Positions 1-7,018 of a stretch of 64,000 bases of DNA are shown here, piece after piece. The DNA is from Anaerolineaceae bacterium (GTDB taxonomy: Bacteria; Chloroflexota; Anaerolineae; Anaerolineales; UBA11657), in the NCBI GenBank assembly GCA_003569365.1, contig BGOS01000020.1, positions 4,050 to 68,049 on the forward strand. Reading direction: 5' to 3'. Numbering within the stretch: position 1 is the stretch's first letter; each line of letters begins with the position of its first letter. The notes beneath the pieces were generated by a model, which had not been told where the DNA came from, did not search any database, and saw only the letters and a list, made by a program, of their open reading frames with translations. The translations under genes and the position numbers were made by a program.

Positions 1-1492
1 CGTTCACCGTGATCGTTTCGGACGTAAAGGCCACGTTCCCGGCCGCGTTCACTGCCCCATCCACTGTGATGGAGTCATTTCCGTCCCTGCCGTCTACTGC
101 CAAGTTTTCCACTGTCCCGTCAAAGCTCACCCGGTCGGCTCCGCCCGTTAGCACGCCTGCGCCCACGCGCAGCGTGTCATTCCCGCTGGTGCCCTCCAGC
201 ACCAGGCTGTCTGTTCCATTCGTGCCGCTGTCGCTTATAAACAACGAGCTCACAAATCCGCCGAGGCGGACCCGGTAGCTGTCGCTGCCGCCGCGCCCGT
301 CTAAGGTGACGTTGCGCGCGCTGCCCAGCAGGTTCACCACCAGCGAATCATCGCCCGTGGTGCCCTCCAGCAATATCTCGGCCACATTGGCCAAGTTGAT
401 CGCCGACGCAAAGAAAAAGTTGCGCAGGCGCACACTGCTGGCATTTGCCACGCTCACCACACCCGCCAGCCGCGAAGTGATGTTGTTGACCGAGCCCGCA
501 ACCGTGATGTTGCTCAGCCCGTCAATCGTCACATTCTCGGCATAGTCGCCGCCTTCCACATACACCGTGCTGTCATTGGGGTGGCCGTTGGCGGCCACAT
601 CATTCAGCGCTGCCTGGATCGGGGTGGCAGTGGCGGTGCAAGTGTTGGTGGCGTCCACTGTCTGCCCGGAGCAATCCGTCAGAAAGCGGTGCGTGATGGT
701 GCCGCGCGTGAAGTAGGGGTCCGGCACATAGGCCGGCGCGGCTGCGTTGGCAGAGGCGGTAGAAGCGGAGCGCTCAGCTGCGGCCTTCAAAGCAGCGGCC
801 TGGTCAGTGGCGGCGGCTGTGTCGGTCAGCGCCGGCATGGCCCCGGAGGGTGCCATCGCGGCTGCTGCAGGCAGCTGTGCAGTTTTGGAAACAGACAGGG
901 GTTGGGTTGCGGCCGGTTGGATGTTGGTGACAGGTACGGCCGCGTTCCCGGAAAGGGCGTTGGTAATTGGGGTGGAGATCGGATTCGTTATTGGGGCTGG
1001 AGCAATTGAGTTCGAAGTTGTGGAGCTGTCCGCGCTAATAGATGAAGAAACCGAAGGGCTGCTGGATGGTGAGCTCTCTTGCGCTGCCGGGCTGGCCACT
1101 GCCGCTGCCGGGCTTTCTTGCGCTGCCGGGCTGGCCACTGCCGCCGCCGGGCTCGCTTGCGCTGCCGGGCTGGCCACTGCCGCCGCCGGGCTGCTCACTG
1201 CTGCACTCACATCCACTGCCGGGCTGGCACTGCTCGCCGTGGCGCTCACGTCTACTGCGGGGCTGGCGCTGCTGGCTGCAACGCTCACATCCACCGCGGC
1301 CGCAGAGCTGCTTGCGGTTGCCTCTGCAACCTGCGCTCCAGCGGGCGTGTCGCCTTCGGCCAGTGCCACGCCAGTGCGACCAACCATCATGCCCGTTACC
1401 AGCGCAGCAACTGCGAGGAAACGCAAAAAGCCGAACGCAAAGCGATCGGTCTTTTTTGACTCGACGATTGATTCAGACACCGACGGGTTCAC
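1..1492 (-). CDS. Large secreted surface/adhesin-like protein, N-terminal part only (runs off the left edge)
   Basis: Not in the ORF track because it has no stop in the window. Manual translation: GTG start at 1492 with AGAGGAG RBS at 1504-1510; signal peptide MNPSVSESIVESKKTDRFAFGFLRFLAVAALVTGMMVGRTGVALA; Ala/Ser/Pro-rich 13-aa repeats; then IQAALND...VYVEGGDYAENVTI and RTX-like GTTGDDSL, GRGGSDSY, GTSGNDTL, GRDGNDSI motifs. The frame stays open to the window edge. Confidence 0.85.
   Translation of the reverse strand, partial: MNPSVSESIVESKKTDRFAFGFLRFLAVAALVTGMMVGRTGVALAEGDTPAGAQVAEATASSSAAAVDVSVAASSASPAVDVSATASSASPAVDVSAAVSSPAAAVASPAAQASPAAAVASPAAQESPAAAVASPAAQESSPSSSPSVSSSISADSSTTSNSIAPAPITNPISTPITNALSGNAAVPVTNIQPAATQPLSVSKTAQLPAAAAMAPSGAMPALTDTAAATDQAAALKAAAERSASTASANAAAPAYVPDPYFTRGTITHRFLTDCSGQTVDATNTCTATATPIQAALNDVAANGHPNDSTVYVEGGDYAENVTIDGLSNITVAGSVNNITSRLAGVVSVANASSVRLRNFFFASAINLANVAEILLEGTTGDDSLVVNLLGSARNVTLDGRGGSDSYRVRLGGFVSSLFISDSGTNGTDSLVLEGTSGNDTLRVGAGVLTGGADRVSFDGTVENLAVDGRDGNDSITVDGAVNAAGNVAFTSETITVN
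1075..1305 (-). repeat. 39-bp (13-aa) intragenic tandem repeats
   Basis: Encodes SPAAAVASPAAQ(A/E) x3 and AVDVSxxASSASP-like x3 in the stalk of the secreted protein. Confidence 0.8.
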
Positions 1493-2018
1493 CTGCCCGT
1501 AAGCTCCTCTTCTAACGAACTAAATTGTCAGAACGAAAAAAATTTGGTTTGTGTTTGCTGCGTTTTCATTTACAGCAACTGGTGTAACACTTTCGTTGTT
1601 TTGGTTAGGCCGCTTCGTTTGGGAAGTTCGTTCCGGCCGCCGCTCGTTTGTGTACCATGTTGCTGCTTGTTGATCACCACAACAAGCCACATCACCCCAT
1701 CACCGAGGTGTTTATAGCAAATTTAGGGGGTCAGAGTCAAGTGTTTCAACCAAATATTCTGGCCAATTTCCGGCTACGCCAGCAGTTGCAAACCAGCCCC
1801 GCAAAGGCCCGGGCTAGCCACAAATTTGCTGATTCGGGCGCTCGGCTGGAGCTTGAATGTCGCAGGACCGGAATACAGGCATAGTGACGCACCGGGTTGC
1901 ACGTGGAGCTTCGGTCTCCACAATATTTCCGCTCAGGGCTGCGCTGTATAACCACAAATCACACTGTTTGGCGGTCAGGCTGTGACACCAGTCGGGAAGA
2001 TGGTGATTTCCGAACGCG

Positions 2019-2899
2019 AATCTGCGCACAGAGGCGCGGAGTACAACCCGCCCGCGCTGCGGAATTTGGATGCCGCTTGGCGCGCACCAAGATCAATCTG
2101 CGCACAGTGCGCGCGGTACAACCCGCCAGTGCCCCGTTTTTTGTTGGCCGCGCTGCGGAATTTGGATGGCGCTTGGCGCGCACCAAGATCAATCTGCGCA
2201 CAGTGCGCGCGGTACAACCCGCAAGTGCCGCGTTTTTTGTCAGCCGCGCTGCGGATTTTGGATGGCGCTTGGCGCGCATCAAGATCAATCTGCGCACAGT
2301 GCGCGCGGTACAACCCGCAAGTGCCGCGTTTTTTGTCAGCCGCGCTGCTGAATTTGGATGGCGCTTGGCGCGCACCAAGATCAATCTGCGCACAGAGCGC
2401 GCGGTACAACCCGCAAGTGCCGCGTTTTTTGTCAGCCGCGCTGCGGAATTTGGATGGCGCTTGGCGCGCATCAAGATCAATCTGCGCACAGTGCGCGCGG
2501 TACAACCCGCAAGTGCCGCGTTTTTTGTCAGCCGCGCTGCTGAATTTGGATGGCGCTTGGCGCGCACCAAGATCAATCTGCGCACAGATCCGTGCGGTAC
2601 AACCCGCCCGTGCCGCGTTTTTTGTCAGCCGCGCTGCTGAATTTGGATGGCGCTTGGCGCGCACCAAGATCAATCTGCGCACAGTGCGCGCGGTACAACC
2701 CGCCCGTGCCGCGTTTTTTGTCAGCCGCGCTGCTGAATTTGGATGGCGCTTGGCGCGCACCAAGATCAATCTGCGCACAGTGCGCGCGGTACAACCCGCC
2801 CGTGCCGCGTTTTTTGTCAGCCGCGCTGCTGATTTTGGATGGCGCTTGGCGCGCACCAAAATCAATCTGCGCACAGAGGCGTGCGGTACAACCCGCCAG
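2019..2899. repeat. Intergenic tandem array of a 96-bp unit (about 9 copies)
   Basis: Unit CGCGCTGC(G/T)GA(A/T)TTTGGATGGCGCTTGGCGCGCA(C/T)CAAGATCAATCTGCGCACAGTGCGCGCGGTACAACCCGC(AA/CC/CA)GTGCCGCGTTTTTTGTCAGC starts at 2053, 2149, 2245, 2341, 2437, 2533, 2630, 2726, 2822. One copy is 97 bp, the last is partial, and a partial copy precedes 2053. No unique spacers. Confidence 0.95.
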
Positions 2900-2967
2900 C
2901 GCTGCGCTTGCACGGCACCGCGATTTTGTTTTCACGGGCGGCCTTGGCCTGCCCGGCGCTTTGCCGC

Positions 2968-5514
2968 TTACTGGCCCAGGTTCTTCAGCGCCGCCTGTCC
3001 CTTGGCAATCCACACCGGATCTTTCTCCAGTTCCACAAAGCGCCGGTAGTCTGCCACTGCCGCCGTCTTATTGCCGGTCGACTCAAAAACCAGGCCGCGA
3101 TTAAAGTACGGGCGCGCAAACGCCGGGTCAATTTGCAGGGCGCTGTCAAAGTCCGCGCGCGCCTTGTCCAGCTGCTTTAGCGCAATAAATGCGATGCCGC
3201 GGTTGTTGTAGGCGCTCGCAAATTTTGCGTCCAGCGCCAGGCCGGCGCTGAAGTCCGCAATCGCTTTTGCATAATCCTTCAGCGCCAGATAGGCCAGCCC
3301 GCGCTCCACCAGCGCCTGCGCAAACTTCGGGTTGAGCTTTAGCACGCCGTTCAAATCTGCAATTGCATCCTTGGATTGCTGCAGCTGGTTGTAGGCCGCA
3401 GCGCGGTTGTAGAGCGCCTCCAAAAATGTCGGCTCCAGCTTGAGCGCGCTGCTGTAGCGCTTGATGGCTTCTTGAAACTGGCCCGCATTGAACGCGGCGT
3501 TGCCCTGCGCCAGCAGTTTGCCCTGGGCCTTCAGTGCGCCAGCGGTGTCCAGCTCGCGCAGCCGGTCTTGCGCGCGCTGGCGCCAGGTGCTGTCGGTTTC
3601 CAGTTCCAAAAACTTGGTGAAGTCCGCGCCGGCCGCCGGCAGTTCGCCCAGTGCCTGCAGCGCCAGGCCGCGGTTGTAGTAGGCCTGGGTATACGCGGCG
3701 TTCAGCTTTACTGTGGCGTCAAAGTCTTTGCGCGCTGCGGCGTACTCGCCGGCCTGCATGCGCACAATGCCGCGGTTGTTGTAAGCCTCAATCAGCTGCG
3801 GGTCCAAACTAATTGCCTTGTCATAGTCTGCCAGGGCTGCGCTGCGCTGGCCGGCGCTGGCTTGCTCCACGCCGCGCCGCAAATACGCCAGCGCATTGCC
3901 GGGCAGCAGCGCCACCGCGCGCGCAAAGTCTGTTAGCGCGGCAGCGGACTGCTGCAGGTTGTGCTGCGCCTGGCCGCGGTCCAAATACAGCTGCCCGTCA
4001 TTGGGCGCCAGCTGCAGCGCTGCGTTCAGGTCTGCCAGCGCCAGTTTGTGGTCGCCCAGCTCGGTATGCGCCGCGGCGCGGTTTTGCAGCGCCAGCACAT
4101 ACTGCGGCTGCAGCGTTAGGGCGCTGTCATAATCCGCCACCGCAGCCGCAAAGTTGCGCTGCTGAAAGTGCACATGCCCGCGGTTGTTTAGCGCCGGCGC
4201 GCTTTGGGGATCCAGCTCCACCACGCGCGTGTAGTCTGCCAGCGCGGCCGGCAGGTCGCGCAGGCCGTCATGCATCAGGCCGCGGTTGTAGTAGCCGCTG
4301 GCTGCCTGCGGCTGCAGCTCTATCACGCGCGAGAAGTCGCGCAGCGCAGCGCCGTAGTCCTGCAGCGCGGCGTGCGTCAGGCCGCGCTCGGTCAGCAGCT
4401 CCACGGAGTCCGGGCTGCTTTGCAGCGCGGCCGCAGCCGCGGCCAGCGCCTCCGGCAGGCGCTGCAGGCCGCGCAGCGCCACCACCAGCGAGCGCTGCGC
4501 ACTGGGGTTGCCGGGCTGAATGCGCAGCGCACTGCGCAGCTGCTGCTCTGCTGCGGCGTACTCGCCGCGCTCAATATGCAGCAGCGCCAGATTGGTGCGT
4601 GCCTGCCAGAATTCGCCGTTGAGCTGCAGCGCATGCTGGTAGTCCGCCAGCGCGCGCGGCGCATCGCCGCTGCGCAGGTAGGCGCTGCCGCGGTCATTAA
4701 ACACCGCGGGGTTGTTGGGGTCCAGCAGCGCAGCCTGGGTGTAATCAGCAATCGCATCCGCCGGGCGCAGCAGCGCAATGAAGGCGGCGCCGCGGTTCTC
4801 GTACGCGGCTGCATTCTTGGGGTCGATTAATATTGCCTCGGAGAAGTCCGGCAGCGCGCGCTCCGGCTGCTGCAGTGCCATGCGCGTCAGGCCGCGGTCC
4901 ACAAAGCCGGCGCCAAACTGCGGCGCCATGATCACAGCGGTGTCAAAGTCCAGCAGCGCATCGCTATACTGCTTGAGGCCGTTGCGCGCCAGGCCGCGCC
5001 CGTAGTACGCCAGCAGCGTGTCCGGTTTTGCAGCCAGCGCACTGTTAAAGTCCGCAATCGCCAGCTGGTACTCGCCGCTTAGGCTGTGCGTTGAGCCGCG
5101 CTCAACCAGCAGCTCCACATTGTCCGGCGCCAGCAGCAGCGCGCTGTCAAAATCCGCCAGCGCTGCCGGCAGGCTGCCCAGCTGGCGCAGCAGCATCGCG
5201 CGCCGCGCCAGCGCTGCCAGCGCGCGCGGGTCCACTGCCAGTACATCGCCATAGCGCGCAATCGCGCGGTATAAGTCGCCTTGCCCGGCCAGCTTGTCTG
5301 CGCTGGCGAGCGCAGTGGCAGCCGGGGCGCGCAGTGTGGCAGTGCCCGCCGGCGCTGCGCCCGCGGGAGTTTGCCCGCCCAGCAGCGGCAAAAGCGTGCT
5401 TAGCAGCAGTGCCAAAACCAGCACACTGCCCAGCAGTGCGCCGAGCAGTGCCGGCACGCTGCGCCGCCAGTTCATGCGCACGCGGCGCGCCCGAATGTGT
5501 TGCAGCCATTGCAT
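2968..5514 (-). CDS. Tetratricopeptide repeat protein with N-terminal membrane anchor or signal
   Basis: 848-aa ORF with roughly 20 consecutive 34-aa TPR motifs (AYxNRG...A..D...A..L.P) and a hydrophobic N-terminal helix. Alternative start at MNWRR. Confidence 0.92.
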   Translation of the reverse strand: MQWLQHIRARRVRMNWRRSVPALLGALLGSVLVLALLLSTLLPLLGGQTPAGAAPAGTATLRAPAATALASADKLAGQGDLYRAIARYGDVLAVDPRALAALARRAMLLRQLGSLPAALADFDSALLLAPDNVELLVERGSTHSLSGEYQLAIADFNSALAAKPDTLLAYYGRGLARNGLKQYSDALLDFDTAVIMAPQFGAGFVDRGLTRMALQQPERALPDFSEAILIDPKNAAAYENRGAAFIALLRPADAIADYTQAALLDPNNPAVFNDRGSAYLRSGDAPRALADYQHALQLNGEFWQARTNLALLHIERGEYAAAEQQLRSALRIQPGNPSAQRSLVVALRGLQRLPEALAAAAAALQSSPDSVELLTERGLTHAALQDYGAALRDFSRVIELQPQAASGYYNRGLMHDGLRDLPAALADYTRVVELDPQSAPALNNRGHVHFQQRNFAAAVADYDSALTLQPQYVLALQNRAAAHTELGDHKLALADLNAALQLAPNDGQLYLDRGQAQHNLQQSAAALTDFARAVALLPGNALAYLRRGVEQASAGQRSAALADYDKAISLDPQLIEAYNNRGIVRMQAGEYAAARKDFDATVKLNAAYTQAYYNRGLALQALGELPAAGADFTKFLELETDSTWRQRAQDRLRELDTAGALKAQGKLLAQGNAAFNAGQFQEAIKRYSSALKLEPTFLEALYNRAAAYNQLQQSKDAIADLNGVLKLNPKFAQALVERGLAYLALKDYAKAIADFSAGLALDAKFASAYNNRGIAFIALKQLDKARADFDSALQIDPAFARPYFNRGLVFESTGNKTAAVADYRRFVELEKDPVWIAKGQAALKNLGQ

Positions 5515-5685: not shown

Positions 5686-7018
5686 TTATTGGGAAAAACT
5701 CTCGTCACCGCCGGTGCCTTGATCCGTGACAGTGTCTTTATCAAAATCATCAACCGCTGCACCGGCAGTATATGTTCCGCCAATAAACACATCCCTACCC
5801 GCGCCGCCGGTTAATACATCGGCACCCAAGCCACCAATCAGTGTGTCATCGCCGGCACCGCCGTCGATTTTGTTCGCGTTTCCATCACCGGTGAGCGTGT
5901 CATTGCCGCTGCCACCGGTTATGCCTTCAGTGTTGCTGACAGTCTCTGTTCCGTAATTACCCATGTTTACAGAAAGGCTCAGGTCAAAAACCACCGGGCT
6001 AGTTTGGTCGGCGAAGGATATGGTGTCGGAGCCGGCACCACCATCAATTGTGTCGTTGCCGGAACCGCCCTGAAGTGTGTCGTCGCCCGCGCCGCCGGAT
6101 AGCGTGTCATTGCCGGCACCGCCGACAATTGTATTGGCGTTGCCATCGCCGACAAGTGTGTCATTCCCGCCACCACCCGTAATGTTTTCAATGGTGCTTA
6201 TGGTCTCGGTCGTGCTGCTGTCACCAGCAAAATAAACCTCTCCTTTAGATAAGTTGGCGTTGACCGAACCCGAATAAAAAGCATAGGTGATGGAGTCGGT
6301 ACCTACTCCACCGTCCACCATATCATAGCCCCAAGAGCCATCGAGAGTGTCATCGCCCGCGCCGCCGGATAGAGTGTCGTTGCCAGAGCCGCCGTTTAGC
6401 GTGTCATTGCCTGCAAGGCCGTAAATTGTGTCTGCGCCGGAGCCGCCGGTAATTGTGTCGGCTGCAGTACTGCCATAGATGGTGTTTTTGCAGGTGTCGT
6501 TGGTGAGATCCAGAGTATTGCCACCGGTAAAGGCGTAATACACAAAGCTGGCTGAATAGGTCCAGGACCAGTCTGCAGCGGAGAACACAATGTTGCGCGC
6601 GGCGGCGTTGCACGCAGTATTGATTGCAGTGGTGTTAGTGGCAAATGACCCCAGCGGCGCCGGCGTGGCGGTTGCAGTAGTTGTGGCAGTGGTGGTAGTG
6701 GCAAATGACCCCAGCGGCGCCGGCGTGGCGGTTGCAGTAGTTGTGGCAGTGGTAGTGCTGTATGTGCAGGACACAATGTAGTTGGCCGACGCGTTGTAAT
6801 TAGACGCCGCCGAATCCAGACAGCCGTAAATTACTGAGGTGGAGGTAGAGGTAGAGGTAGAGGTAGAGGTGGAGGTGGAGGTAGAGCTCGAGTCCGAATA
6901 TGCTCGCACTACATATTGCAACGGATTGTAATATGTTGAGACCGTGCTGCCAAAGCCCGCAGTGCCGGCAGCTGCTGTAGTGCCATAGCCCGTAGTGCCG
7001 GCAGCTGCTGTAGTGCCG
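5686..7018 (-). CDS. C-terminal part of giant surface protein: Ser/Thr linker, GCLDxxAxNYN motif, RTX Ca-binding repeats
   Basis: ORF 5686..6921 has many GGxGxDxL nonapeptides. Its frame extends upstream (GYGTTAAAGTAGFGSTVSTYYNPLQYVV...) and continues the repeats of the upstream ORF across a 1-nt deletion near 7019. Confidence 0.85.
6627..6757. repeat. 60-bp direct duplication (TTTATTTATATPAPLGSFA x2)
   Basis: Near-identical consecutive 60-bp blocks. Confidence 0.8.
6836..6886. repeat. (GAGGTR)n hexamer microsatellite encoding a (ST)n linker
   Basis: gaggtg/gaggta repeated about 8 times. Confidence 0.8.

Follow-up and report, generated by a model that had tools for sequence, protein, structure and literature searches.

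The window, by which we mean the whole 64,000-nt stretch of DNA analyzed, contains an array of 96-bp direct repeats near its left end. The array lies in the gap between two genes on the minus strand, which are a TPR gene and a giant secreted-protein gene, as claimed in the original prediction. The genes around the array are the following.

1–1492, minus strand (start at 1492): gene of a secreted Ala/Ser-rich PATR-repeat protein, at least 1825 aa; downstream neighbor of the array, continuing left of the window to the contig end
2968–5514, minus strand: gene of a TPR-repeat protein, 848 aa (TPR_1, E = 5.5e-112); upstream neighbor of the array
5686–6921, minus strand: gene with RTX calcium-binding repeats, 411 aa
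6909–11627, minus strand: gene of a FecR-domain protein, 1572 aa, with FecR as the only Pfam match

The stop codon of the TPR gene is 68 nt away from the end of the array. The giant protein has a signal-peptide-like N-terminus, Ala/Ser-rich 13-residue repeats, and a long Gly/Ser/Thr-rich, beta-helix-like sequence. Its PATR repeat (E = 1.3e-11) is autotransporter-passenger-like. The N-terminal Ala/Ser-rich region is encoded in part by 39-bp (13-codon) tandem repeats at window positions 1073–1294, with 3.1 copies at 95% and another 2.7 copies at 75%. Near the contig start, the gene changes frame. Over its last ~200 residues, the 1825-aa frame reads as Arg/Pro/His-rich nonsense, and a second frame (contig positions 2–1150, minus strand) carries on the PATR-like repeats, repeating a ~40-residue stretch of the first frame. 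The frame change is either a true frameshift, a duplication, or an assembly error in the repeat. On the other side of the array, the RTX gene overlaps the end of the 1572-aa FecR-domain gene by 13 nt, and the latter is full of 18–57-bp coding repeats. The TPR, RTX, FecR-domain, and giant PATR genes form a co-directional cluster of large secreted-looking proteins.

Farther to the right, the housekeeping genes holA, priA, rhomboid, and gmk were found, and the context of the array is therefore chromosomal. Together with the TPR, RTX, and FecR-domain genes, a DUF6391 gene, and several family-less ORFs, these are the genes scanned within ~20 kb. The DNA at the 3′ end of the TPR gene was not found in five same-genus or same-family genomes (68–90% complete), and the first 497 residues of the giant protein were not found in 20 relatives. 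The flanks are thus not conserved, and the locus has the sequence character of flexible, repeat-rich DNA of putative surface-protein genes.

Tandem Repeats Finder (TRF) reported a single array on the window, at 2052–2906, having a period of 96, 8.9 copies as assembled, 95% matches, and a score of 1503. With a 13-nt motif as the anchor, the units start at 2019, 2095, 2191, 2287, 2383, 2479, 2575, 2672, 2768, and 2864; the start-to-start spacing of the repeats is 96 seven times and 97 once. In this register, the array spans 2019–2899, and its predicted coordinates and description as 96-bp units fit these results. It is composed as follows.

2019–2094: first unit, truncated to 76 nt; the long hairpin is present and contains a C–C mismatch in its top stem
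2095–2863: eight full direct units, seven of 96 nt and one (2575–2671) of 97 nt
2864–2899: last unit, degenerate; it is homologous to nt 1–36 of a unit and then gives way to unique sequence

The units directly abut each other head to tail, without spacers. Missing from the first unit are 20 nt, which in the full units contain the T-run and the 3′ arm of the terminator-like stem. Beyond the last unit, a diverged look-alike of this 3′ arm plus a T-rich run is seen at ~2914–2933. When the flanks were searched by local alignment for further decayed units, none was identified; the scores (21 and 16) stayed below the best ones of shuffled sequences (23 and 24). The internal units show 0–8 pairwise differences over 97 aligned columns, the rotated units at 2625–2720 and 2721–2816 being identical. 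The edge units are the most diverged, having 6–18 differences over 97 columns. The copy-to-copy differences were predicted to fall mostly in the loop or to exchange G–C for G–U pairs. This was partly right; differences also occur in the unpaired columns 2–3, 14, and 61–64, and there are two stem-breaking changes, both in the first unit. In a genome-wide TRF run, the block at 2019–2899 was the only long-period non-coding array in the assembly.

Each full unit contains two hairpins on the plus strand, exemplified by the following features.

2254–2286, plus strand: hairpin 1 (alignment columns 15–47); 14 pairs, one A–A mismatch, one U–G pair, and a 3-nt loop
2303–2334, plus strand: terminator-like motif; 9-bp stem (two G–U pairs), 9-nt loop, and T6 at 2329–2334

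Both correspond to structures that had been described from the letters, namely, a long imperfect hairpin and a stem with a 9-nt loop and a T-run. Hairpin 1 was seen in nine of nine rotated units. Eight T6 runs are present on the plus strand, starting at 2137, 2233, 2329, 2425, 2521, 2618, 2714, and 2810 (2137–2142 to 2810–2815). Directly 5′ of T6, a perfect 8-bp stem was found in seven of the eight cases; the stem at the first T6 run has a C–C mismatch. The perfect pair claimed for the last unit was recovered as a perfect 8-bp outer stem. An automated terminator scan missed the unit hairpins because its loop limit was 8, and the loop here is 9. On the plus strand, the units have a GC-rich stem directly followed by a U-run, as intrinsic terminators do. 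They do not stand at the end of a same-strand transcription unit: both neighbors are on the minus strand, and no credible plus-strand gene ends upstream of the array. A 78-aa plus-strand ORF at 1648–1884 looks spurious.

The two strands are not equivalent in their pairing. When the same 23 pairs were scored over the nine units, 95.1% of the cells were paired on the plus-strand RNA versus 81.0% on the minus strand, where helix 1 had 73.6% of its cells paired. The plus strand pairs better because three fixed and two polymorphic mispairs are G–U on this strand and A–C on the other. Each of the fixed transition-type mispairs (three of three) and of the polymorphic stem changes (two of two) favors the plus strand. 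By our own arithmetic, five one-sided mispairs would have a two-sided probability of about 1 in 16 if they were independent, which gives a hint, but no proof, of selection on a plus-strand RNA or on single-stranded DNA.

The folding energies show the same direction for the local hairpins, which are 4–5 kcal/mol more stable on the plus strand than on the minus strand. The isolated terminator hairpin had −16.5 kcal/mol on the plus strand (z = −1.95; 7 of 200 shuffles were as good) versus −11.4 kcal/mol on the minus strand (z = +0.33). The corresponding values for the local fold of hairpin 1 were −14.9 and −10.5 kcal/mol. The minus-strand local folds were no better than shuffles (z = +0.33 and −0.96). 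Whole units did not stand out from their dinucleotide shuffles, whichever strand was folded (z = −0.27 to −1.35); on the minus strand, their energies were −36 to −43 kcal/mol. Folding one unit on both strands, the check proposed along with the prediction, thus supported the plus strand for the local hairpins and left the whole units at the level of shuffles. Compensatory changes were not found: none of the 23 pairs was altered on both sides over the nine units, with a shuffle control that was uninformative (500 of 500). The proposal that the structure is conserved in a plus-strand RNA therefore agrees with the strand asymmetry (95.1% vs. 81.0%), but its conservation part is not supported, with two-sided changes in 0 of 23 pairs and no credible homologue in the genomes searched.

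We then considered how hairpins of this kind are used elsewhere in the genome. Directly before T5+ runs, perfect stems of 8 bp or more were found at 98 sites outside the array versus 39 in a mirrored control, and adjoining T6+ runs at 29 versus 10 sites. For 50 of the 98 sites with a T5+ run, an ORF of 120 aa or more ends on the same strand within the preceding 150 nt, as compared with 241 of 1022 random positions. A cruder test on the minimum free energy (MFE) of the 40 nt upstream versus downstream of T-runs showed no difference (−9.68 vs. −9.66). The organism uses hairpin-plus-T-run terminators, moderately. Since it does, the unit hairpins would probably terminate plus-strand transcription. 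The hairpin-plus-T6 motif of the array is not a trivial chance occurrence, because only 29 such T6+ sites are found elsewhere in the genome, versus 10 in the mirrored control. Genome-wide, canonical hairpin-plus-T-run terminators are few, at ~100 sites (stem of at least 8 bp, T5+) versus 39 mirrored, and most genes must therefore end transcription in some other way.

The promoter scan covered the sigma-70-like consensus. It yielded one site in 1300–3300.

1720–1749, minus strand: sigma-70-like promoter match (TTGAAA, 18 nt, TAAATT), the only one in 1300–3300; a consensus match

One site was found versus 0.6 expected from shuffling, which makes this a weak match. Read in its own direction (1749–1720), the promoter-like site falls between the array and the giant gene. 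Within 2019–2935, no sigma-70-like promoter was found on either strand, and the 270 nt to the left of the array contain no such site on the plus strand. The lack of a promoter-like site in the array speaks against a set of independent small-RNA genes. The idea of an ECF-sigma promoter was dropped, with no sigma gene beside the FecR-domain gene.

Searches for related sequences returned the array itself. The genome (2.63 Mb in 30 contigs, 95.5% complete) gave BLAST matches to the unit and nine matches to a covariance model, built from the nine units and their plus-strand structure; all of them fell within this single array. A match to a dispersed REP or MITE family would have overturned the prediction, and the unit occupies only one locus in its own genome. 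BLAST against 60 relatives gave no real match; five of them had merely 25–39-nt GC-rich matches with E values of 2e-4 or worse. Scans with a 20-mer core, which may leave out records of the window's own genome, returned five single chance matches in the GTDB species genomes and five in the JGI metagenome contigs, none of them extending past ~29 nt. Two of the five GTDB matches are one duplicated sequence.

Among 150 genomes of the order, the covariance model gave two weak matches, with per-genome E values of 0.012 and 0.083; they share a GC-rich 14-mer without the terminator half. Both were rejected: L037 is inside a 551-aa ORF and misses the terminator half, and L038 misses the terminator half as well. 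No match was obtained in 150 genomes sampled from the phylum, and the plasmid and phage collections contained no match to the unit. In Rfam, no family was identified; the best scores were 7.6–12.7 bits versus gathering thresholds of 40–154, with nothing below E = 1.7 (E = 1.7–9.9). The comparison with relatives that had been called for thus produced no credible homologue by BLAST (60 genomes) or by the covariance model (300 genomes), and the Rfam check was likewise negative. A small-RNA array is expected to be conserved in relatives with structure-preserving changes, and neither was seen over the 60, 150, and 150 genomes and the 23 pairs.

The stretch is present in 20 DNA runs from six studies of lake and river water; among the 24 runs listed, no RNA run contained it. 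In Logan contigs of four runs from four studies, long contigs on the left side end in the array at 2062–2103, and those on the right side begin at 2848–2869. The array interior is represented in the four runs by many short contigs (44–165 nt) with unit variants; no Logan contig among these runs spans the whole array. Word depth, which is a sum over contigs and not a copy number, reaches several times the flanking level within the array (e.g., up to 3550 vs. 395 in run X1). Since contigs from four studies enter the array at both edges and carry unit variants, the array is not an assembly artefact, which was another outcome that would have undone the prediction. The repeat is real and polymorphic in nature.

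Two joints were noted in a riverine run, X19. A ~90%-alike contig joins the TPR gene end (2963–3099) to 33 letters of 1709–1741, in the promoter-like region, and past these 33 letters, it continues unlike the window. This 1741-to-2963 joint may come from a related lineage without the array, and it is too thin to use. A second joint, weak and out of register, connects 2070 to 2493 in ~90%-alike contigs with a 29-letter side.

Several classes were tested against these data and discarded. For a coding repeat, two of the six frames are nearly stop-free, which a GC-rich repeat would be expected to show, but all long ORFs pass into another repeat frame at the single extra nucleotide of unit 2575. 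The only ATG-started frame has 29 codons; five units interrupt it with an in-frame stop, and the remaining units leave it open. By our own count, one of about seven substitutions is synonymous in this frame. No Pfam family passes the cut-off (best, 17.6 bits vs. 27). A CRISPR array was rejected, as the units abut without spacers and none of the genes scanned within ~20 kb is a cas gene, in line with what had been noted from the letters. A plasmid centromere or iteron was rejected on the chromosomal context (holA, priA, and gmk are 12–18 kb away), on the lack of a match in the plasmid and phage collections, and on the 16-bp near-palindrome of the unit, which is broken by substitutions that hairpin 1 tolerates. 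Dispersed families (MIRU, REP, BIME, or MITE) were ruled out by every own-genome match lying in one array, and a known RNA family by the lack of an Rfam match at the gathering threshold.

Known repeat systems resemble the array in part. The array is similar to mycobacterial MIRUs in being spacer-less, head to tail, of similar unit size, non-coding, and intergenic between co-directional genes. MIRUs, the classic example of such intergenic minisatellites, have units of 40–100 bp at 41 mainly intergenic loci, with copy-number polymorphism at 12 of these (PMC5056196). They form a dispersed family, contain small ORFs, lack obvious palindromes, and share one orientation with respect to the genes around them. 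In contrast, the array occupies one locus and has two hairpins and a T-run per unit. Not being dispersed, it does not qualify as a MIRU.

The array shares with the NsiR1 locus about a dozen spacer-less direct repeats of ~60–100 bp, an adjoining gene, and a terminator-like unit end. According to Ionescu et al. (2010), NsiR1 units reportedly carry terminators. In heterocystous cyanobacteria, there are 12 tandem copies of a 60-nt RNA, each copy with its own promoter (PMC4030482). The RNA is detected, and the locus is conserved in all heterocystous genomes (PMC4030482). For the array, in contrast, no promoter or homologue was found. The REP/BIME elements of enterobacteria have units of ~35–40 bp, in alternating orientation, with hundreds of dispersed copies. 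The array is like them in having tandem palindromic units in the gap past the 3′ end of a gene, and differs in its 96-bp unit, direct orientation, and single locus.

BrickBuilt, a minisatellite/MITE of Porphyromonas gingivalis, has 23-nt units, 19 genomic copies, and promoter activity (PMC4596501). It also has a leader and a tail with inverted-repeat ends (PMC4596501). Like the array, BrickBuilt is an intergenic tandem repeat that is restricted to one species, lacks spacers, and is predicted to form secondary structures (PMC4596501). The 23-nt units, leader and tail, 19 copies, and promoter activity set BrickBuilt apart from the array, in which none of these was seen. The array also resembles the hmw1A/hmw2A tracts, since both are repeat arrays upstream of a very large surface-protein gene. 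Known contingency repeats are short tracts in or between promoter elements. In the hmwA promoters of Haemophilus influenzae, the number of 7-bp repeats is inversely correlated with the transcript level (PMC2424069). The hmw1A/hmw2A units are 7 bp long and lie within the promoter with a proven dose effect (PMC2424069), whereas the 96-bp units of the array are upstream of a putative −35 element, where a dose effect is hypothetical.

With moderate confidence, we interpret the array as a young, lineage-private intergenic minisatellite, amplified from a terminator-like hairpin segment. The units are spacer-less direct repeats with a period of 96, and they are non-coding and intergenic, with the TPR stop codon (2968) on one side and the start codon of the giant gene (1492) on the other. 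We read the array in this way because the internal units are similar, the edges are decayed, the unit is confined to a single locus amid flexible, repeat-rich surface-protein DNA, and no promoter, coding capacity, homologue, or compensatory change was found. Similar internal units and diverged edges are the usual pattern of a homogenized tandem array, and strain-to-strain variation in copy number, a hallmark of minisatellites, would be expected of the array. The original prediction held that the array fits no recognized class. In our view, it does fit one, that of bacterial intergenic minisatellites with hairpin- or terminator-derived units.

We infer a young age, the lack of a selected function, and the following course of amplification. 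Through unequal recombination or replication slippage between its units, a head-to-tail array would have grown from a 96-bp segment with two GC-rich hairpins, one of them followed by T6. The hairpin-forming nature of the units probably aids amplification. The same process would keep the units alike through concerted evolution, with the two edge units left to drift. The array does not code for a protein and probably contains no separate RNA gene. Any effects are likely to be passive: each added unit would move the TPR gene and the giant gene 96 bp farther apart, and up to eight terminator-like hairpins on the plus strand would stop an antisense transcript heading to the TPR gene.

The alternatives assign an activity to one strand or to the unit number. 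It is unlikely, in our estimate, that the array is transcribed on the plus strand, either as a row of self-terminated small-RNA genes similar to NsiR1 or as stacked fail-safe terminators. As an insulator, the latter would block antisense transcripts from the control region of the giant gene from entering the TPR/RTX/FecR-domain cluster. This explanation accounts well for the perfect 8-bp stem before seven of the eight T6 runs, which provides a terminator per unit, and for the preference of the plus strand in both the terminator hairpin (−16.5 vs. −11.4 kcal/mol) and the pairing (95.1% vs. 81.0%). It also accords with the use of hairpin-plus-T-run terminators in this genome, and tandem small-RNA gene arrays have a precedent in NsiR1 (PMC4030482). 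However, a promoter per unit is missing, with no sigma-70-like site in the units or, on the plus strand, in the 270 nt left of the array, and no credible plus-strand gene ends upstream. A lone transcript from upstream would be stopped by the first complete terminators, which would make units 3–8 redundant. Compensatory changes, homologues, and an Rfam family are also lacking, and the array is private, whereas NsiR1 is clade-wide. The narrower proposal that each unit is a small plus-strand RNA gene, or that the array is a processed multi-hairpin RNA, with a promoter type unseen by the sigma-70 scan, appears improbable. For the minus strand, one may imagine a read-through transcript from the TPR gene to the giant gene, in which the hairpins would be REP/BIME-like stabilizers or processing sites of the upstream mRNA. 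The array directly follows the TPR stop codon, no hairpin-plus-T-run terminator is present past this gene on the minus strand, and the units fold at −36 to −43 kcal/mol on it. We regard this as very improbable, as the minus-strand helices contain A–C mismatches (81.0% paired; 73.6% for helix 1), the local folds equal shuffles (z = +0.33 and −0.96), and REP/BIME elements are dispersed families, whereas the unit here is at one locus.

The array may also be a contingency element, in which the gain and loss of 96-bp units would alter the expression of the giant gene through distance, TPR read-through, or local DNA structure upstream of the promoter. Functional repeat tracts often sit just upstream of giant surface-protein genes, as this array does. 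It is located 270 nt upstream of the only promoter-like site of the giant gene, amid co-directional secreted-protein genes, and its unit variants are numerous in natural populations. The hmwA promoter repeats of H. influenzae offer an analogy (PMC2424069). Nevertheless, known contingency repeats are short tracts within or between promoter elements, whereas these 96-bp units are upstream of the −35 element, and the promoter call itself is a weak consensus match (1 vs. 0.6 expected). This makes the contingency role rather unlikely. Finally, the array or its size could have been produced by metagenome assembly. Short-read assembly has difficulty with 96-bp repeats that are 95% identical, the array is not crossed by any single public contig of the four runs, and toward the contig end, the reading frame of the giant gene is broken and a repeat is duplicated. 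Against this, contigs from four runs of four studies enter from both flanks with many unit variants, and the summed word depth is several-fold that of the flanks (up to 3550 vs. 395 in X1, a sum that gives no copy number). An artefact is therefore extremely improbable.

The significance of the locus depends on which of these explanations applies. If the units were small plus-strand RNA genes or a processed RNA, they would constitute a family of about eight terminated small RNAs that is private to its lineage and was amplified recently, lying in antisense orientation between two surface-protein genes of a freshwater bacterium. This would be an NsiR1-like array born de novo from terminator duplication. 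Expression of the units would provide a rare glimpse of a small-RNA gene family arising in one lineage beside a giant adhesin-like gene. If the array is the minisatellite that we favor, it would have little importance alone, and it may serve as a strain-typing marker for an abundant lake bacterium. As a minisatellite, it would also be another case of terminator-like hairpins acting as favored seeds of tandem amplification, which can mislead those who hunt for RNA motifs.
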